32,000 bases of DNA from Psychrobacter sp. HD31 (GTDB taxonomy: Bacteria > Pseudomonadota > Gammaproteobacteria > Pseudomonadales > Moraxellaceae): positions 1,140,001 to 1,172,000 of the forward strand of contig NZ_CP142525.1 of NCBI RefSeq assembly GCF_051097895.1. The letters run 5' to 3'. The notes under the pieces are model-generated. The model did not search any database, was not told where the DNA came from, and saw only the letters and a list, made by a program, of their open reading frames with translations. The position numbers and the translations under genes were made by a program. This document shows positions 1,021 through 23,449 of the stretch, in pieces (the first letter of the stretch is position 1; each line of letters opens with the position of its first letter).

Positions 1021-1134
1021 AGCTGACGATGACCTACTCTCACATGGGCGAACCACACTACCATTGGCGCGAAGACGTTTCACTTCTGAGTTCGGGAAGG
1101 GATCAGGTGGTTCCATCTTGCTATTATCGTCAGC
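1021..1134 (-). rRNA. rrf: 5S rRNA (operon 1)
   Basis: The reverse complement contains CCACCTGATCCCTTCCCGAACTCAGAAGTGAAACG and GGTAGTGTGG...GAGAGTAGG. The terminal helix pairs gctgacgat with atcgtcagc. Confidence 0.92.
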
Positions 1135-1279
1135 GAAGGGGTTTTAACAACAGCAACCGACTAGGTTGCTAGTAGAAATGAGTTTTATATATGTCTTTCG
1201 ACTTTCAAGATTATTATCTGATATCAAGCTTATGATGATATCGAAATTATATTAACTATATAAACCATTTTGGTATTGT

Positions 1280-4133
<2,854 letters not shown>

Positions 4134-4343
4134 CAATCCAAAATAGTTTGCAATGTATAGGTAATTTAATTAACGATATCACCATTTGTGTTGTTATCTA
4201 TCTTCCAATAAATAACGCGCTTGATTCAGTTCTCTTTACTTTTCGATAGTTAACGGTGGGATAACATTACAATGTCATTCCGTTAACTATCAGGTTAAAC
4301 ACATTCTTGTTGGAACAGTGTGTTTAACCCAGACTCATTTCTA

Positions 4344-4357
4344 TGTTGTTAAATAGT
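4344..4357 (-). promoter_or_regulatory. boxA-like antitermination motif in the tRNA-Ala to 23S spacer (operon 1)
   Basis: The minus strand reads CTATTTAACAAC and contains the TTTAACAA core of the E. coli rrn boxA (GCTCTTTAACAA). Confidence 0.4.
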
Positions 4358-4443
4358 TTATGATGCTCTCTTCAAGTCATCATGTTCTTTCTGCTTTCAC
4401 AGATATAAATAATCTTCCCAAATTACTTATATCTGTAAATTAA

Positions 4444-4519
4444 TGGTGGAGCCAAGGAGAGTCGAACTCCTGACCTCCTGCGTGCAAGGCAGGCGCTCTA
4501 CCAACTGAGCTATGGCCCC
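4444..4519 (-). tRNA. tRNA-Ala (anticodon UGC)
   Basis: The reverse complement is GGGGCCATAGCTCAGTTGGTAGAGCGCCTGCCTTGCACGCAGGAGGTCAGGAGTTCGACTCTCCTTGGCTCCACCA. It is cloverleaf-compatible and has an encoded CCA. Confidence 0.97.
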
Positions 4520-4520
4520 A

Positions 4521-4597
4521 TGGTGGGTCTAATAAGACTTGAACTTATGACCCCCGCGTTATCAACACGGTGCTCTAACCAGCTGAGCTATAGACCC
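4521..4597 (-). tRNA. tRNA-Ile (anticodon GAU)
   Basis: The reverse complement is GGGTCTATAGCTCAGCTGGTTAGAGCACCGTGTTGATAACGCGGGGGTCATAAGTTCAAGTCTTATTAGACCCACCA. Confidence 0.97.
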
Positions 4598-4657
4598 TTA
4601 TAGCTTACTTCTTAAAAAACAACTTGTTGTGAATTCTTGCCAATTGAATGCTTTCGT

Positions 4658-6192
<1,535 letters not shown>

Positions 6193-6459
6193 ATCTTTGT
6201 TGAGACCTTTTAAGATGGTCCCTAATCTTGGCTCATTCGTACTTTACTAGCATATTTACTTAAGTATGTTCGTATATGAATTAACTTTGGTATTTCTACT
6301 AATTTCGTCGAATGATTATCTTTTTAAAGTCATTCTAAATTAGCAAAAATCCACACAAGTTGTTTTTTAAGTTTGTTTTTAATGAGTTAGATTACCTTCG
6401 TCAGGTTAATCTTTACCCCCTTTGTCTTCAACGTATGCTGTGCGACTCAGGGAAGGCAT

Positions 6460-6487
6460 ATTATATAGTGTTTATCTCTCGTGTCAA
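6460..6487 (-). promoter_or_regulatory. rrn operon 1 promoter P2 (proximal)
   Basis: The minus strand reads TTGACA, a 16-nt spacer, then TATAAT. An A/T-rich UP-like tract (aaaaaactttaaaaaggcgtaaaaaagtg) lies upstream and a G/C-containing discriminator (atgccttccc) lies downstream. Confidence 0.7.
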
Positions 6488-6614
6488 CACTTTTTTACGC
6501 CTTTTTAAAGTTTTTTCGCTTCGCTTTTCTTTGTTTTAAGCTTAACTCAATTTCACTTTAATTTACGCTACAAAACTTCGCTTTGTCAGCTCTGCCCCGT
6601 TTGCGTGAGGGCGT

Positions 6615-6642
6615 ATTATACGCAGTTTTTTTAGGTTGGCAA
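6615..6642 (-). promoter_or_regulatory. rrn operon 1 promoter P1 (distal)
   Basis: The minus strand reads TTGCCA, a 16-nt spacer, then TATAAT, followed by the GC-rich discriminator acgccctcacgc. This is typical of stringently controlled rrn promoters. Confidence 0.7.
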
Positions 6643-6888
6643 GGGGTTTTTAAAGATTTGTGAAATTTGTTTGTAAGGGGCTGGTTTGAAAGGGGGTTTT
6701 GATGGAAGTTTGTTTGCTAGCCAATGGGTGGTTATTTGACTTTATATATGTGTCTTTAGTTTCCAACCTTTATTATTTATTTTTTCTTCCTACTATAAAT
6801 GTTTTCGACTTCTAATGTAGAAATTTAACGCCCTCACTTACAGCTGGTTTATTGCGCAGCAGAATATCAGTCCTACAACATTCACTTG

Positions 6889-8133
6889 TTAGCTCTCACT
6901 CTCCGTTTCAATCATATTTTTCAAATCAGAGAAAGCCCTATTTTGCTGATTAAGATTGCTCTTAAAGTCTATTGCTTTAACGGAACGCTCATGTCCCTCA
7001 CCATGATGCTCGTATATTTCCAAATAGCCCTCTTGCTCTAACTGATCGATGAGATCATAGCTTGACTTGAAATCATAACCCATGGGCCCTAGATAATTGA
7101 CGACAAATGACTTAAGACCCATAAATTCGTATCCGTTTTCATCCGTAAATCTTTTGCTAGCCCTAAGTTTAGATAGCATCTCTGACTTTGAAATTGCTTT
7201 CAGAGAAGACTCACTTGCAATTACATCTCTTATTGCATCTCTGTCATCAGACGAAAATTGAACTGCAGCAATTTTCTCTTCAGCATCTTTAATTATTTTT
7301 TCAAGATCTTCTGTTAGCTCTTTTGCAGTAATTCGATCTTTTTCAACAAAAAGGCTGTTATGAGCTACCTTATGTCTAATTTTCTCTAACTGCTCCCATT
7401 TTTGCTGGAAGTTCTGATCTTTAAACGACTCTTTAAAAAATTTATTGTAGTTAGATTGAAGTTCAATTTTTAAGGCAGCGATTGCTTCTTGAGTTTCCTC
7501 CATTTCCATGACCTTGGTATAGATGTCATCTCTTGAAATAAAACCAGAAGATTGAGAGTAGACGATTTTACCTAACTCTCCAAAATCGATTAAGTAAGCC
7601 TTACTATCAGCTTTAGATGAAAAATTTGTCTCGTTATTCTTCCTGTTAATAACTTTCTTTTTCATTTCTGAATCAGCTGTCAAAGACCACCAGTTCGGAC
7701 CAAGTTTTGTTACAAGAAACTTAATTAGATATCTGCGCAAGGAATTTTCAACTTTATTGATTTCAGGGTAAATATCATTCGCAATATTCGAAGACGCTTC
7801 ATCCGTAAGCACATATATGTGCTCAAACTTTAGCTCCTTAAGATGCGATAAGATTTTTAATCTAAAGGGCTCTAGAAACTGTAATTGTGCAGATATTCTA
7901 ACAATGAATCCTGTCCCTATTTGATCTTTAACTTCATCATCTGGATCGACCTTTGCTATTTGGATATTTAGACCTTGGTCTCGATCTTCAATTTGAGTAT
8001 TATCATGCTTGAGTCTTGGATTCTCAAACAAAGAGGAATTCGACATTAAGGCGTAACAAAGCTCTTGTTCTGCTTTGACAACACACTTTCCTATATTATC
8101 TACGCAAAGTAGTTCATATTCCAATTTGCTCAA
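6889..8133 (-). CDS. HEPN-domain protein (414 aa): unknown N-terminal domain, central Swt1-like HEPN with an Rx4H motif, and a possible winged-helix C-terminal domain
   Basis: This is a long clean ORF in an otherwise non-coding spacer. R253-H-K-V-A-H258 (nt 7360-7377) fits the HEPN Rx4-6H catalytic motif. Upstream helices read VENSLRRYLIKFLVTKLGPNWW and YLIDFGELGKIVY, the pattern I associate with Swt1-like HEPN domains. The C-terminal segment FMGLKSFVVNYLGPMGYDFKSSYDLIDQLEQEGYLEIY looks like a winged helix-turn-helix, which is an inference. Confidence 0.8.
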   Translation of the reverse strand: MSKLEYELLCVDNIGKCVVKAEQELCYALMSNSSLFENPRLKHDNTQIEDRDQGLNIQIAKVDPDDEVKDQIGTGFIVRISAQLQFLEPFRLKILSHLKELKFEHIYVLTDEASSNIANDIYPEINKVENSLRRYLIKFLVTKLGPNWWSLTADSEMKKKVINRKNNETNFSSKADSKAYLIDFGELGKIVYSQSSGFISRDDIYTKVMEMEETQEAIAALKIELQSNYNKFFKESFKDQNFQQKWEQLEKIRHKVAHNSLFVEKDRITAKELTEDLEKIIKDAEEKIAAVQFSSDDRDAIRDVIASESSLKAISKSEMLSKLRASKRFTDENGYEFMGLKSFVVNYLGPMGYDFKSSYDLIDQLEQEGYLEIYEHHGEGHERSVKAIDFKSNLNQQNRAFSDLKNMIETESES

Positions 8134-8426: not shown

Positions 8427-8540
8427 AGCTGACGATGACCTACTCTCACATGGGCGAACCACACTACCATTGGCGCGAAGACGTTTCACTTCTGAGTTCG
8501 GGAAGGGATCAGGTGGTTCCATCTTGCTATTATCGTCAGC
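8427..8540 (-). rRNA. rrf: 5S rRNA (operon 2)
   Basis: It is identical to 1021-1134 at offset 7406. Confidence 0.92.
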
Positions 8541-8685
8541 GAAGGGGTTTTAACAACAGCAACCGACTAGGTTGCTAGTAGAAATGAGTTTTATATATGT
8601 CTTTCGACTTTCAAGATTATTATCTGATATCAAGCTTATGATGATATCGAAATTATATTAACTATATAAACCATTTTGGTATTGT

Positions 8686-11539
<2,854 letters not shown>

Positions 11540-11749
11540 CAATCCAAAATAGTTTGCAATGTATAGGTAATTTAATTAACGATATCACCATTTGTGTTGT
11601 TATCTATCTTCCAATAAATAACGCGCTTGATTCAGTTCTCTTTACTTTTCGATAGTTAACGGTGGGATAACATTACAATGTCATTCCGTTAACTATCAGG
11701 TTAAACACATTCTTGTTGGAACAGTGTGTTTAACCCAGACTCATTTCTA

Positions 11750-11763
11750 TGTTGTTAAATAGT
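11750..11763 (-). promoter_or_regulatory. boxA-like antitermination motif in the spacer (operon 2)
   Basis: The sequence is the same as at 4344-4357. Confidence 0.4.
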
Positions 11764-11848
11764 TTATGATGCTCTCTTCAAGTCATCATGTTCTTCTGCT
11801 TTCACAGATATAAATAATCTTCCCAAATTACTTATATCTGTAAATTAA

Positions 11849-11924
11849 TGGTGGAGCCAAGGAGAGTCGAACTCCTGACCTCCTGCGTGCAAGGCAGGCG
11901 CTCTACCAACTGAGCTATGGCCCC
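11849..11924 (-). tRNA. tRNA-Ala (anticodon UGC)
   Basis: It is identical to 4444-4519. Confidence 0.97.
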
Positions 11925-11925
11925 A

Positions 11926-12002
11926 TGGTGGGTCTAATAAGACTTGAACTTATGACCCCCGCGTTATCAACACGGTGCTCTAACCAGCTGAGCTATAGAC
12001 CC
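11926..12002 (-). tRNA. tRNA-Ile (anticodon GAU)
   Basis: It is identical to 4521-4597. Confidence 0.97.
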
Positions 12003-12062
12003 TTATAGCTTACTTCTTAAAAAACAACTTGTTGTGAATTCTTGCCAATTGAATGCTTTCGT

Positions 12063-13595
<1,533 letters not shown>

Positions 13596-21176: not shown

Positions 21177-21503
21177 ATGTCAGCAACTATTTTAACAACT
21201 ACCGATGCAAGCTTTAAAAGCGATGTATTAGAATCAACCGTACCTGTATTGGTTGACTTTTGGGCACCTTGGTGTGGTCCTTGTAAGGCAATTGCCCCTG
21301 TACTTGAAGAGCTAGCAACCGACTACGAAGGCAAAGTACAAATTGCTAAAATAAACGTAGATGAAAATAACCAAATCGCTGCACAATTTGGTATCCGCAG
21401 TATCCCTACTTTATTTGTATTTAAAGGTGGTGAGCGTGTAGAAGCACTTGTGGGCTTGCAGTCAAAAGAGCAGCTAGCACAAGCGTTAGATAAGCATATC
21501 TAA
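21177..21503 (+). CDS. trxA: Thioredoxin 1
   Basis: It is 108 aa with the WCGPC active site ([12 protein letters not shown]). The Shine-Dalgarno is AAGGAG. Confidence 0.95.
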
Positions 21504-21530: not shown

Positions 21531-21557
21531 AAAAAACCCTCGTTTGAGGGTTTTTTA
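21531..21557. terminator. Bidirectional rho-independent terminator between trxA and the convergent orphan gene
   Basis: The sequence is aaaaaaCCCTCgtttGAGGGtttttt, with an A-run on one side and a T-run on the other. Confidence 0.85.
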
Positions 21558-21563
21558 TTAAAA

Positions 21564-22259
21564 CTATTTATAAATCTCATCAATAAAATTTTGAATCATA
21601 TTTCTCATTTTCATACCTTCATATTGAAAAATAGGTATGACTCTTTGACAGTGTTGATTCAGCACCTCTTTTAAATCAAGAGCCTCTCCGGTTCCGTCTT
21701 TCTTAAATAACATGTTATTTTTCATAGAAAAATCTACTAAAGTAAGAATATAATCCTCTTCACTATTCCATACAACTGATTTATGGACAAGTATATTCCT
21801 TATAGAAATCATTTCTTCATGAGCCTTATAAAAACGGTTTTTTAACAAACTCACTTGCTCCTTTTTTAAATGTTCTTGTGATTTAAAACCATGCAAAGTT
21901 TGATTGAAAATATCTCTTGTTCTAGAGAACTCATAGAAGTAAGTTCGCTTTAATAGATATAATCTCTTTCGAGGAGAGCCTATCAATAAATTTAATCTGT
22001 CAGGAAGAAAATACAAATCATCTAATACAATATTTAAGTTTTCGATTACTTCATCAATCTCTTTATACAATAAAAAAATAGTAAACCCAGTCAGTTCTTC
22101 TTCCGTAAGTTCAGTATTCTTCAAAATGGCGATTTTATCTAAACTAGAATCAGGTAAAATATTAATTTTTTTAGCAACATCACTTAAAACTTTAATCAAC
22201 TTACTTGGCAAAACTAAATGCTCAATTTTACGCTTATTTAAACTTTCTTTAGACTCCAT
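21564..22259 (-). CDS. Orphan HEPN-like protein (231 aa) with an RNxxxH motif
   Basis: R154-N-I-L-V-H159 (nt 21783-21800) fits the Rx4H motif and lies in a predicted helical context (AHEEMISIRNILVHKS). The gene looks AT-richer than its neighbours by eye. The Shine-Dalgarno is weak. Confidence 0.65.
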   Translation of the reverse strand: MESKESLNKRKIEHLVLPSKLIKVLSDVAKKINILPDSSLDKIAILKNTELTEEELTGFTIFLLYKEIDEVIENLNIVLDDLYFLPDRLNLLIGSPRKRLYLLKRTYFYEFSRTRDIFNQTLHGFKSQEHLKKEQVSLLKNRFYKAHEEMISIRNILVHKSVVWNSEEDYILTLVDFSMKNNMLFKKDGTGEALDLKEVLNQHCQRVIPIFQYEGMKMRNMIQNFIDEIYK

Positions 22260-22326
22260 ACACCGACCAAATTTTTATAAAATACTTGAACATAAGAAAA
22301 CACGATCCCATCTATATTTAAGAAAT

Positions 22327-23259
22327 TTAATTATTCTTAACACCAAATGGGATATGAACTGATGGCACAACCGAACTGGTTGAGGTTAGATGTTTAGATT
22401 GATCATCAAAGAAAATATGTGGTTTTAGCACACCCAAAACCAACTGTTTATCTATCCCACCCAAGAAAAAGGCATCATTGGTCATCACGCCCCACTCTTT
22501 TAACGTATTTAACGCACGCTCGTGCGATGGTGCATTACGAGCCGTCACGATAGACACCCTTAACCTATTTTCATAATCAGGATGTTTTTGCTTTTTTTGT
22601 TCCTCAATTTTTTGAATGGCAGATATTTTAACCAAAAACTCTTTTAATGGACCTGGATTATGCGGTTGCGTTACTTTTTTGCTTTCATGCTCATGAAACT
22701 TGTTCAAATCGTTTGTTGTATGCATTACGGTTTCTGACTCATCATCTGCCAGCACACCATCAAAGTCAAAAGCAATCCTTAAATCCTTATCTTCTTCATC
22801 AATTATGGCAGATTTCATAACATGCCCAGCGGGAAAACCTAGGCTAATTGCCTCTTTAACATCGGTAGAATTACCTGATAAAAACAAAGAAATATTTAAC
22901 GCTGGGATATAATCATAAGGAGATTTGCCTTGCATAAAAATAGCACGGGAAATTGGTAAATTATGATACTCAATAGACTTCATCACTCTAAGCCCTGTAT
23001 CAGGGTCGTTACGAGATAAAAGCATCACTTCAACCAGTGGGTCTGCTATTGGATTGTCACTTAAATCATTAAGCGATAACAAACGTTTAACAAATGAAAA
23101 TGATACCCCCTTTTTAAGCGGTACATCCACATTTTTAGCTTGGTATTTGCGGTAGGCTTCTTCGCCTTTGGTACGAAAAACACGGTCAGATTCTGATAAA
23201 TCAAACATGGCACTTGATGCAACACCAATAACCAACCTATTACCCAGCTCGTAAGACAT
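22327..23259 (-). CDS. 5'-nucleotidase, bacterial PF06189-type (HAD-like)
   Basis: The segments LVIGVASSAMFDL, VEVMLLSRNDPDTGLRV, IAFDFDGVLADDESE, IVTARNAPSHERALNTL and FFDDQSKH match my recollection of this family. Confidence 0.8.
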   Translation of the reverse strand: MSYELGNRLVIGVASSAMFDLSESDRVFRTKGEEAYRKYQAKNVDVPLKKGVSFSFVKRLLSLNDLSDNPIADPLVEVMLLSRNDPDTGLRVMKSIEYHNLPISRAIFMQGKSPYDYIPALNISLFLSGNSTDVKEAISLGFPAGHVMKSAIIDEEDKDLRIAFDFDGVLADDESETVMHTTNDLNKFHEHESKKVTQPHNPGPLKEFLVKISAIQKIEEQKKQKHPDYENRLRVSIVTARNAPSHERALNTLKEWGVMTNDAFFLGGIDKQLVLGVLKPHIFFDDQSKHLTSTSSVVPSVHIPFGVKNN

Positions 23260-23420: not shown

Positions 23421-23449
23421 TTGACAAGCCTGCCCCCTCGCTATATATT
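23421..23449 (+). promoter_or_regulatory. Candidate rho promoter
   Basis: TTGACA (23421-23426), a 17-nt spacer, then TATATT (23444-23449). This would give an untranslated leader of about 250 nt before the rho ATG. Confidence 0.55.

Follow-up and report, generated by a model that had tools for sequence, protein, structure and literature searches.

The stretch of DNA analysed here (the window) comprises 32,000 nucleotides of Psychrobacter sp. HD31 (NCBI RefSeq assembly GCF_051097895.1, contig NZ_CP142525.1, positions 1,140,001 to 1,172,000) and carries, between trxA and rho, a gene coding for a protein of 231 amino acids (aa) next to a gene for a 310-aa 5'-nucleotidase of the family PF06189. 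The explanation that we favour, with fair rather than high confidence, is that the nucleotidase is a resident gene beside an accessory-gene hot spot, and that the hot spot holds in this strain a stand-alone HEPN-like gene, which would encode a putative trigger-activated ribonuclease (RNase). In a preliminary description of the window, trxA and rho had been reported to be co-oriented and separated by two minus-strand genes, and this layout, as well as the coordinates and the motif given with it, was confirmed by the open reading frames (ORFs) and the sequence (Table 1). The locus was compared with contigs of conspecific strains (L002 to L005 and L026 to L028, L004 being the same contig as L026) and with one contig from a related, more distant lineage (L001).

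The 231-aa protein gave no match in Pfam, NCBIfam, PADLOC or PHROGs, and the consensus of its family gave none in PADLOC. A word-indexed homologue search with the protein returned a single relative (P0002, 89% identical), and the same type of search with the family alignment returned only four. When 1.84 billion cluster representatives were scanned exhaustively with HMMER, 103 proteins were obtained at E <= 1e-3, 63 of them at E <= 1e-10, so that the label "orphan" under which the protein had been introduced has to be given up. Most of these relatives are 210-270 aa long and share 20-41% identity with the query. As far as these searches go, the protein belongs to a family that is rare and uncatalogued and comprises about 100 clusters of proteins 210-270 aa in length. 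In an alignment of 66 family sequences with a mean column identity of 25%, the only invariant columns were R154 and H159, while N155, N76, D81, R99, E110, R113 and P18 were conserved in at least 90% of the sequences. Since these two residues are the sole invariant columns at such a low mean identity, the conservation of the R154/H159 motif in this alignment goes far beyond chance. The pattern R[NHDG]xxxH was present in 92 of the 102 relatives (as RNxxxH in 86, with RH in four and RD in one); among the remaining ten, eight are either spurious or truncated (≤177 aa), and in P0148 the arginine is followed by a different residue. In the fetched loci, the motif was likewise found in each of the 14 family genes that extend as far as its region. 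Comparison of the window gene with its L001 orthologue, whose product is 89% identical, gave a ratio of nonsynonymous to synonymous divergence (dN/dS) of 0.26, which indicates purifying selection on the protein. Therefore, the 231-aa ORF is a real gene under purifying selection.

Whereas a single sequence or two sequences as input led to an unusable AlphaFold2 model, with a predicted local distance difference test score (pLDDT) of 52, the 66-sequence alignment yielded an all-helical model with a pLDDT of 91.9 and a predicted template modelling score (pTM) of 0.88. The protein is laid out as an N-terminal helical region (residues ~1-95) and a C-terminal helical domain bearing the motif (~96-231). 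The predicted helices span residues 53-91, 96-127, 133-146/148-159, 167-180 and 196-230, with a short hairpin at 186-193. The motif is located at the C-terminal end of helix 148-159, which ends at H159 and is followed by a loop (160-166). The peptide AHEEMISIRNILVHKS is present in the translation of the 231-aa gene. The full-length family profile gave, among PDB sequences, only coiled-coil-like matches of its N-terminal region (profile positions 18-102, residues ~15-100) to heptad repeat 2 of the coronavirus spike (NEVAKNLNESLIDLQEL versus NEIIENLNLVLSDLRLL, E ~0.006); these were dismissed as a chance, compositional or heptad-type likeness of the N-terminal helix, and they disappeared when the profile was cut down to the C-terminal domain.

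The preliminary description had read the motif as the canonical RNxxxH signature of HEPN proteins. In HEPN domains, the motif stands at the end of helix 3, the arginine is followed by a polar residue (N, D or H), and helix 2 contributes an acidic residue (PMC3710099). The family has the hallmark Rx4-6H with a polar residue after the arginine (R154, N155, H159), the predicted structure places it at a helix end, and the strongly conserved E110 and R113 lie in helix 96-127, which precedes the motif helix. The top Pfam matches of two family consensus sequences were HEPN_RiboL-PSP (E 0.0038) and HepT-like (E 0.0099), both of which cover the motif. Individual members weakly matched 28 Pfam families, and these include the HEPN-group families RiboL-PSP, HepT, Apea and Hypoth_Ymh, the last of which we take to be placed in the HEPN clan. 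When the profile of the C-terminal domain was compared with PDB sequences, Bergeyella Cas13b was found (E 0.019), with RN..H aligned on LRNFYTH at residues 116-121; R116 and H121 are the catalytic HEPN1 pair of this enzyme. An hhalign comparison with a weakly Cthe_2314-like neighbour of one relative gave E 3.3e-4 and a probability of 38%. All these weak HEPN matches (RiboL-PSP, HepT, Cas13b and Cthe_2314-like) are in register at the motif, and we consider it probable that the 231-aa family belongs to the HEPN superfamily. This Cthe_2314-like neighbour, a distant relative of 229 aa that weakly matches Cthe_2314 HEPN and aligns in register at RN..VH (E 3.3e-4), is encoded just before a family member in locus L012, the two genes (5258-5947 and 5968-6714) forming a tandem HEPN-like pair. 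A likeness of the family to LA2681 HEPN was also considered and rejected, since the alignment was confined to the motif and not significant.

The place between the nucleotidase and trxA is occupied by different genes in different strains. The conspecific contigs share 98-99% DNA identity and a 99.7%-identical nucleotidase, and the order rho, nucleotidase, slot, trxA is kept. The slot contains a gene for a 142-aa protein with a signal peptide (MKRALLMGVLGLLSVCASA...) in L002, L004, L005 and L028, and a gene for a 163/165-aa acidic, Trp-rich protein of cytosolic type in L003 and L027. Neither of these two slot proteins had a Pfam or PADLOC match. In blastn comparisons of the window with L002 to L005, identity ended at 22323-22328 and resumed at 21556-21559, that is, it was lost within 1-5 nucleotides of the nucleotidase stop codon and returned at the A-tract of a terminator beside trxA. 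Neither direct or inverted repeats nor attC sites bracketing the slot were found. L001 has the same order as the window, from the 3' end of the nucleotidase through the 231-aa gene to trxA. The synonymous divergence (dS) between the window and L001 was 0.19 for the 231-aa gene, versus 0.86 for trxA and 0.68 for the 3' end of the nucleotidase gene, which indicates that the cassette was exchanged between lineages long after its flanks had diverged. The 231-aa gene also stands apart in its G+C content of 28.0%, versus 38-41% in trxA, rho, rluA and the nucleotidase gene, and the earlier statement that it is AT-rich holds. These results indicate that there is a hot spot of ~770 bp, which has the nucleotidase stop codon and the trxA terminator as its limits and at least three alleles in one species. 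Judging from its divergence, the 231-aa gene is a horizontally acquired single-gene cassette in this hot spot.

The left boundary, where the slot alleles converge again, is a hairpin flanked by an A-tract and, at its opposite side, by a T-tract; it is kept in L001 to L004 whatever the slot contains. Because of the two tracts, it can terminate trxA and the convergent gene alike, and from its shape we take it to be a bidirectional intrinsic terminator common to trxA and the slot gene; a simple terminator scan did not list it among its sites. On the other side, the 67-bp spacer upstream of the 231-aa gene is conserved with L001 and replaced in L002 to L004. As had been described, this gap is devoid of any obvious terminator, and neither the terminator scan nor reading of the sequence revealed a terminator-like site in it. 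The sole promoter-like match near the spacer, a weak one (9/12, 22358-22330), falls within the 3' end of the nucleotidase gene. PF00085 Thioredoxin was matched by identical or orthologous products of trxA in L001, L003, L004 and L026 to L028, and the Rho_N, Rho_RNA_bind and ATP-synt_ab domains were found on the rho orthologue in L002. About 250 nucleotides upstream of rho there is a sigma-70-like site close to the consensus, TTGACA-17-TATATT (11/12, 23421-23449, plus strand), which gives a long leader. Such a leader is expected for the autoregulated rho gene.

Table 1. Features of the trxA-rho interval in the window and alternative alleles of the slot in conspecific contigs
Feature	Position	Strand	Basis or remark
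trxA (thioredoxin, 108 aa)	21177-21503	+	ORF; conserved left flank of the variable slot
Hairpin AAAAAA-CCCTC-GTTT-GAGGG-TTTTTT, AAAAAACCCTCGTTTGAGGGTTTTTT	21531-21556		Read from the sequence; 3' of the 231-aa stop codon
Strain-variable slot, ~770 bp	21557-22326	-	231-aa cassette and 67-bp upstream spacer
231-aa HEPN-like gene	21564-22259	-	ORF; uncatalogued family
Putative HEPN catalytic motif R154-N-I-L-V-H159	21783-21800	-	Conserved in the family
67-bp spacer, nucleotidase stop codon to 231-aa start codon	22260-22326	-	Cassette DNA, not conserved flank
PF06189 5'-nucleotidase (NT5C1A-type, HAD-fold), 310 aa	22327-23259	-	Right flank of the slot
rho, 422 aa	23704-24972	+	ORF; divergent from the nucleotidase gene
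Slot allele, 142-aa protein	L002 11026-11454		Alternative allele
Slot allele, 142-aa protein	L004 2727-3155		Alternative allele
Slot allele, 163/165-aa protein	L003 2449-2946		Alternative allele

The assignment of the 310-aa protein to the PF06189 5'-nucleotidases was borne out by an end-to-end match (E 1.4e-125, 418.5 bits versus a cut-off of 28.2 bits, residues 1-309 on profile positions 1-301/302). The protein also matches PDC-S08 of PADLOC (E 1.5e-137). PDC-S08 is a single-gene candidate for phage defence with an even 50/50 split between phage-resistant and phage-susceptible strains of P. aeruginosa (PMC10855318). The nucleotidase is 99-100% identical in L002 to L005 and 73-86% identical across Gamma- and Betaproteobacteria. 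This conservation is unusual: among the homologues P0008-P0122, those of Psychromonas, Aliivibrio, Photobacterium and Providencia share 80-86% identity with it, and those of Pseudomonas and Variovorax 72-76%. The gene follows pyrBI-ridA-nrdDG in Providencia (rettgeri), where the gene next to it is convergent, and precedes an AraC-type gene in Psychromonas; no member of the 231-aa family was found in the nucleotidase loci of these two genera. The Providencia context suggests a role in nucleotide metabolism rather than the defence role implied by the PDC-S08 label. Since its G+C content and dS are like those of the flanks and it is found in every related contig, the nucleotidase gene looks like a resident, vertically inherited gene of housekeeping type. 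In L027 (1370-2301) it was called as two ORFs of 102 and 204 aa, which reflects either a frameshifted pseudogene or an assembly error.

The neighbourhoods of family members elsewhere were surveyed in 16 further loci. In L007 and L021, the genes upstream of the family gene code for a type II methyltransferase and for Septu PtuA (E 1.7e-203) and PtuB (E 5.8e-58), and a gene for a TPR-LA2681 HEPN protein lies downstream. An Old-family nuclease (E 2e-88) is encoded in L020, AbiU2 directly upstream of the family gene in L013, HipBA together with IS110 in L006 (Polaromonas), and an HNH protein in L011. L009 (Nitrosospira) contains an integrase and a P2 GPA-like protein to which part of a family member is fused. 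In L008 (Vibrio metschnikovii), the family gene forms a cassette by itself, with VCR/attC repeats on either side, within a nine-cassette array; nine VCR-like repeats were counted, and the single ORF is located between the repeats at 2382-2503 and 3231-3354. The fusion in L009 (4472-5608, Nitrosospira sp. NpAV) joins the N-terminal ~130 residues in frame with the P2 GPA-like replication protein just after the phage-type integrase, and is probably a disrupted family copy inside a P2/P4-like element.

An all-against-all comparison of the neighbour proteins in the 16 loci revealed no recurring partner, except in two copies of one metagenomic locus. Apart from the 231-aa ORF, the slot in the window contains no ORF, nor does it have a tandem-repeat RNA or an Rfam RNA. 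A type III (ToxI-like) or other RNA antitoxin in the slot was accordingly rejected, as neither tandem repeats nor an Rfam match were found there. Nor was there an adjacent cognate antitoxin, of the MNT type or any other, either in the single-ORF slot or as a recurring neighbour in the 16 loci, and the earlier statement that the 231-aa protein is without a recognisable antitoxin partner therefore stands. The absence of a recurring partner, the single ORF of the slot and the one-gene Vibrio cassette together indicate that the unit of inheritance is a single gene. Thus, the family has no conserved partner gene and travels as a one-gene unit.

As to function, the 231-aa protein is most likely a self-contained, trigger-activated RNase serving in abortive infection or addiction, as far as its motif, predicted fold and neighbourhoods allow a proposal. 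Its C-terminal domain would be a metal-independent endoribonuclease of the HEPN type with an R/N/H active site, and the protein would probably act as a dimer with a composite R/H site. The RNase may be held inactive by the N-terminal ~95 residues or by the oligomeric state, and released by a trigger such as phage infection or stress. Once released, it would cut cellular RNA, phage RNA or both, leading to an arrest of translation and growth. The nucleotidase would be a mere neighbour, whose transcript may at most read through into the cassette.

Several observations weigh against this proposal. No HEPN profile was matched at its curated threshold, the best score, that of HEPN_RiboL-PSP, being 17.6 bits versus a cut-off of 28.4 bits. 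The acidic motif is spaced as E-x2-R rather than as the E-x3-[KR] typical of HEPN proteins. A Foldseek search of PDB and BFVD with the model (pLDDT 92) gave no significant match, and the HEPN toxin 7ae6_B appeared only at rank 42 (E 1.1, template modelling score 0.17-0.25). The other two slot alleles do not resemble defence genes. The family is missing from PADLOC and was matched neither in 72,556 plasmids, nor in 50,697 phage genomes, nor in IMG/VR, so that a defence role rests on few neighbourhoods, about 7 of the 16 loci being informative. One could conclude instead that the family consists of non-catalytic helical proteins, either regulators binding a ligand or nucleic acid or proteins of an immunity type, in which the arginine and the histidine would be kept for binding or structure. 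The lack of a HEPN fold match, the sub-threshold profile scores, the neighbouring slot alleles and the absence of an antitoxin or other restraint beside a supposedly toxic RNase would all agree with this. We nevertheless regard it as rather unlikely, because the R-[N]-x3-H pattern is invariant and located at a helix end, the helix before it bearing a conserved acidic residue, because the weak matches, obtained independently, are all to HEPN-clan families and in register at the motif, the HEPN group accounting for five of the 28 weakly matched Pfam families if RiboL-PSP is counted again through the consensus, and because stand-alone HEPN Abi proteins without antitoxins exist, such as AbiU2 and AbiJ (PMC3710099) and Esos of Vibrio integrons (bioRxiv 10.1101/2024.07.02.601686). 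Of the original HEPN claim, the conserved motif and its helical context stood up, and HEPN families together with HEPN1 of Cas13b gave the best profile scores, all of them below threshold.

It had further been suggested, as a speculation, that the nucleotidase and the 231-aa protein might act together in a dedicated two-gene module, in which the degradation of a nucleotide or signal could, for instance, be coupled to an RNase effector. The two genes do share one orientation, the 67 bp that separate them contain no terminator, the pair recurs in L001, the nucleotidase matches PDC-S08, and HAD phosphatases can serve as defence effectors in other systems, as described in two reports (PMC12715507, PMC12871103). 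However, tblastn with the window nucleotidase found it in none of the 16 other family loci and only in L001 to L005, its own lineage, so that the pair was seen only in the window and L001. The nucleotidase loci in Psychromonas and Providencia lack the family, conspecific strains combine a 99.7%-identical nucleotidase with unrelated slot genes, the cassette and the nucleotidase gene differ in divergence (dS 0.19 versus 0.68), and PDC-S08 is itself a single-gene candidate evenly split between resistant and susceptible strains. Because no co-occurrence was found in these other loci, the two-gene module is largely refuted, and we give it hardly any credence. In a variant of this idea, the nucleotidase would be the constant component and the 231-aa, 165-aa and secreted 142-aa slot genes would be its exchangeable, co-transcribed partners or effectors rather than random cargo. 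All three alleles are co-oriented with the nucleotidase gene, start ~60-95 bp past its stop codon with no terminator between and share the downstream terminator, and the nucleotidase is both unusually conserved across genera and a PADLOC candidate. Against this, the three products (HEPN-like, with a signal peptide, and acidic cytosolic) show neither mutual similarity nor a common theme, the nucleotidase gene is followed by a convergent gene in Providencia and by the AraC-type regulator in Psychromonas, and the slot begins and ends just where the conserved flanking DNA stops, a pattern that homologous recombination at a hot spot produces. This variant is without positive support, and we judge it very improbable. 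A resident nucleotidase next to a hot spot with a stand-alone HEPN-like gene remains our preferred explanation.

The window contains another putative HEPN gene, which codes for a 414-aa protein (6889-8133, minus strand) and lies alone between two tandem, near-identical ribosomal RNA (rRNA) operons at 1021-6191 and 8427-13594. Each operon comprises 5S, 23S, two tRNAs and 16S, all on the minus strand. The 414-aa protein matches HEPN_Swt1 below threshold (E 2.6e-5, 24.9 versus 27.5 bits) and the PADLOC candidate PDC-M34B (E 1.5e-10). It is unusual for an AT-rich putative defence gene to be inserted between rRNA operons. The absence of any evident likeness between this protein and the 231-aa protein outside the motif, noted before, was reproduced, as hhalign aligned only a stretch of 21 columns at the motif (E 0.12).

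Stand-alone HEPN defence genes and accessory-gene hot spots are both well known, and our analysis brings no new principle; a coupling of nucleotidase and RNase is unsupported. What it documents is a tiny accessory-gene hot spot with sharp boundaries, the stop codon of the nucleotidase gene at one end and the terminator of trxA at the other. As relatives adjoin Septu, Old, AbiU2 and HipBA and one of them is a Vibrio integron cassette, the 231-aa family is a plausible candidate for a new RNase that would act in abortive infection as a single gene and carry an N-terminal control region of its own.

Among known systems, those to be compared first are the stand-alone abortive-infection HEPN branches, namely AbiU2, AbiJ/Taranis, ApeA, Cthe_2314, LA2681 and a "Bxe_C0808 in operon with AbiU2" family (Anantharaman et al. 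2013, PMC3710099). Like these, the 231-aa family has an invariant R-N-x3-H at a helix end, an acidic residue in the preceding helix and a predicted all-alpha domain of ~135 residues, and it occurs in defence islands and mobile elements; like the Bxe_C0808 family, the relative in L013 is encoded directly downstream of an AbiU2 gene. It differs from them in its family-specific N-terminal ~95 residues with conserved P18, N76 and D81, in the E-x2-R spacing, and in reaching neither a Pfam or PADLOC HEPN model at threshold nor a HEPN structure by Foldseek. The comparison of the 231-aa family with Bxe_C0808, as that with Esos, is one by description only. With HEPN-MNT (HepT/MntA) and RnlA/RnlB, the family would share the putative Rx4H RNase chemistry, HepT-like being among its best weak matches, but unlike these systems it has no adjacent antitoxin, a single ORF in the slot and no recurring neighbour in the 16 loci. 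The neighbouring 310-aa protein is a full-length member of the NT5C1A-type PF06189 nucleotidases (PDC-S08) that behaves as a resident here, and nothing links it to the 231-aa gene. Precedents for single-gene cassettes are the "Integron cassette HEPN" family (PDB 3jrt) of the 2013 survey (PMC3710099), to which no match was obtained with the family profile against PDB sequences, and Esos, a single-gene defence system in the Vibrio cholerae superintegron (bioRxiv 10.1101/2024.07.02.601686). While the window copy differs from these in lying outside an integron, with neither attC nor other repeats flanking its slot, the Vibrio metschnikovii relative resembles them in being a one-gene cassette flanked by attC/VCR sites in an array of nine cassettes.

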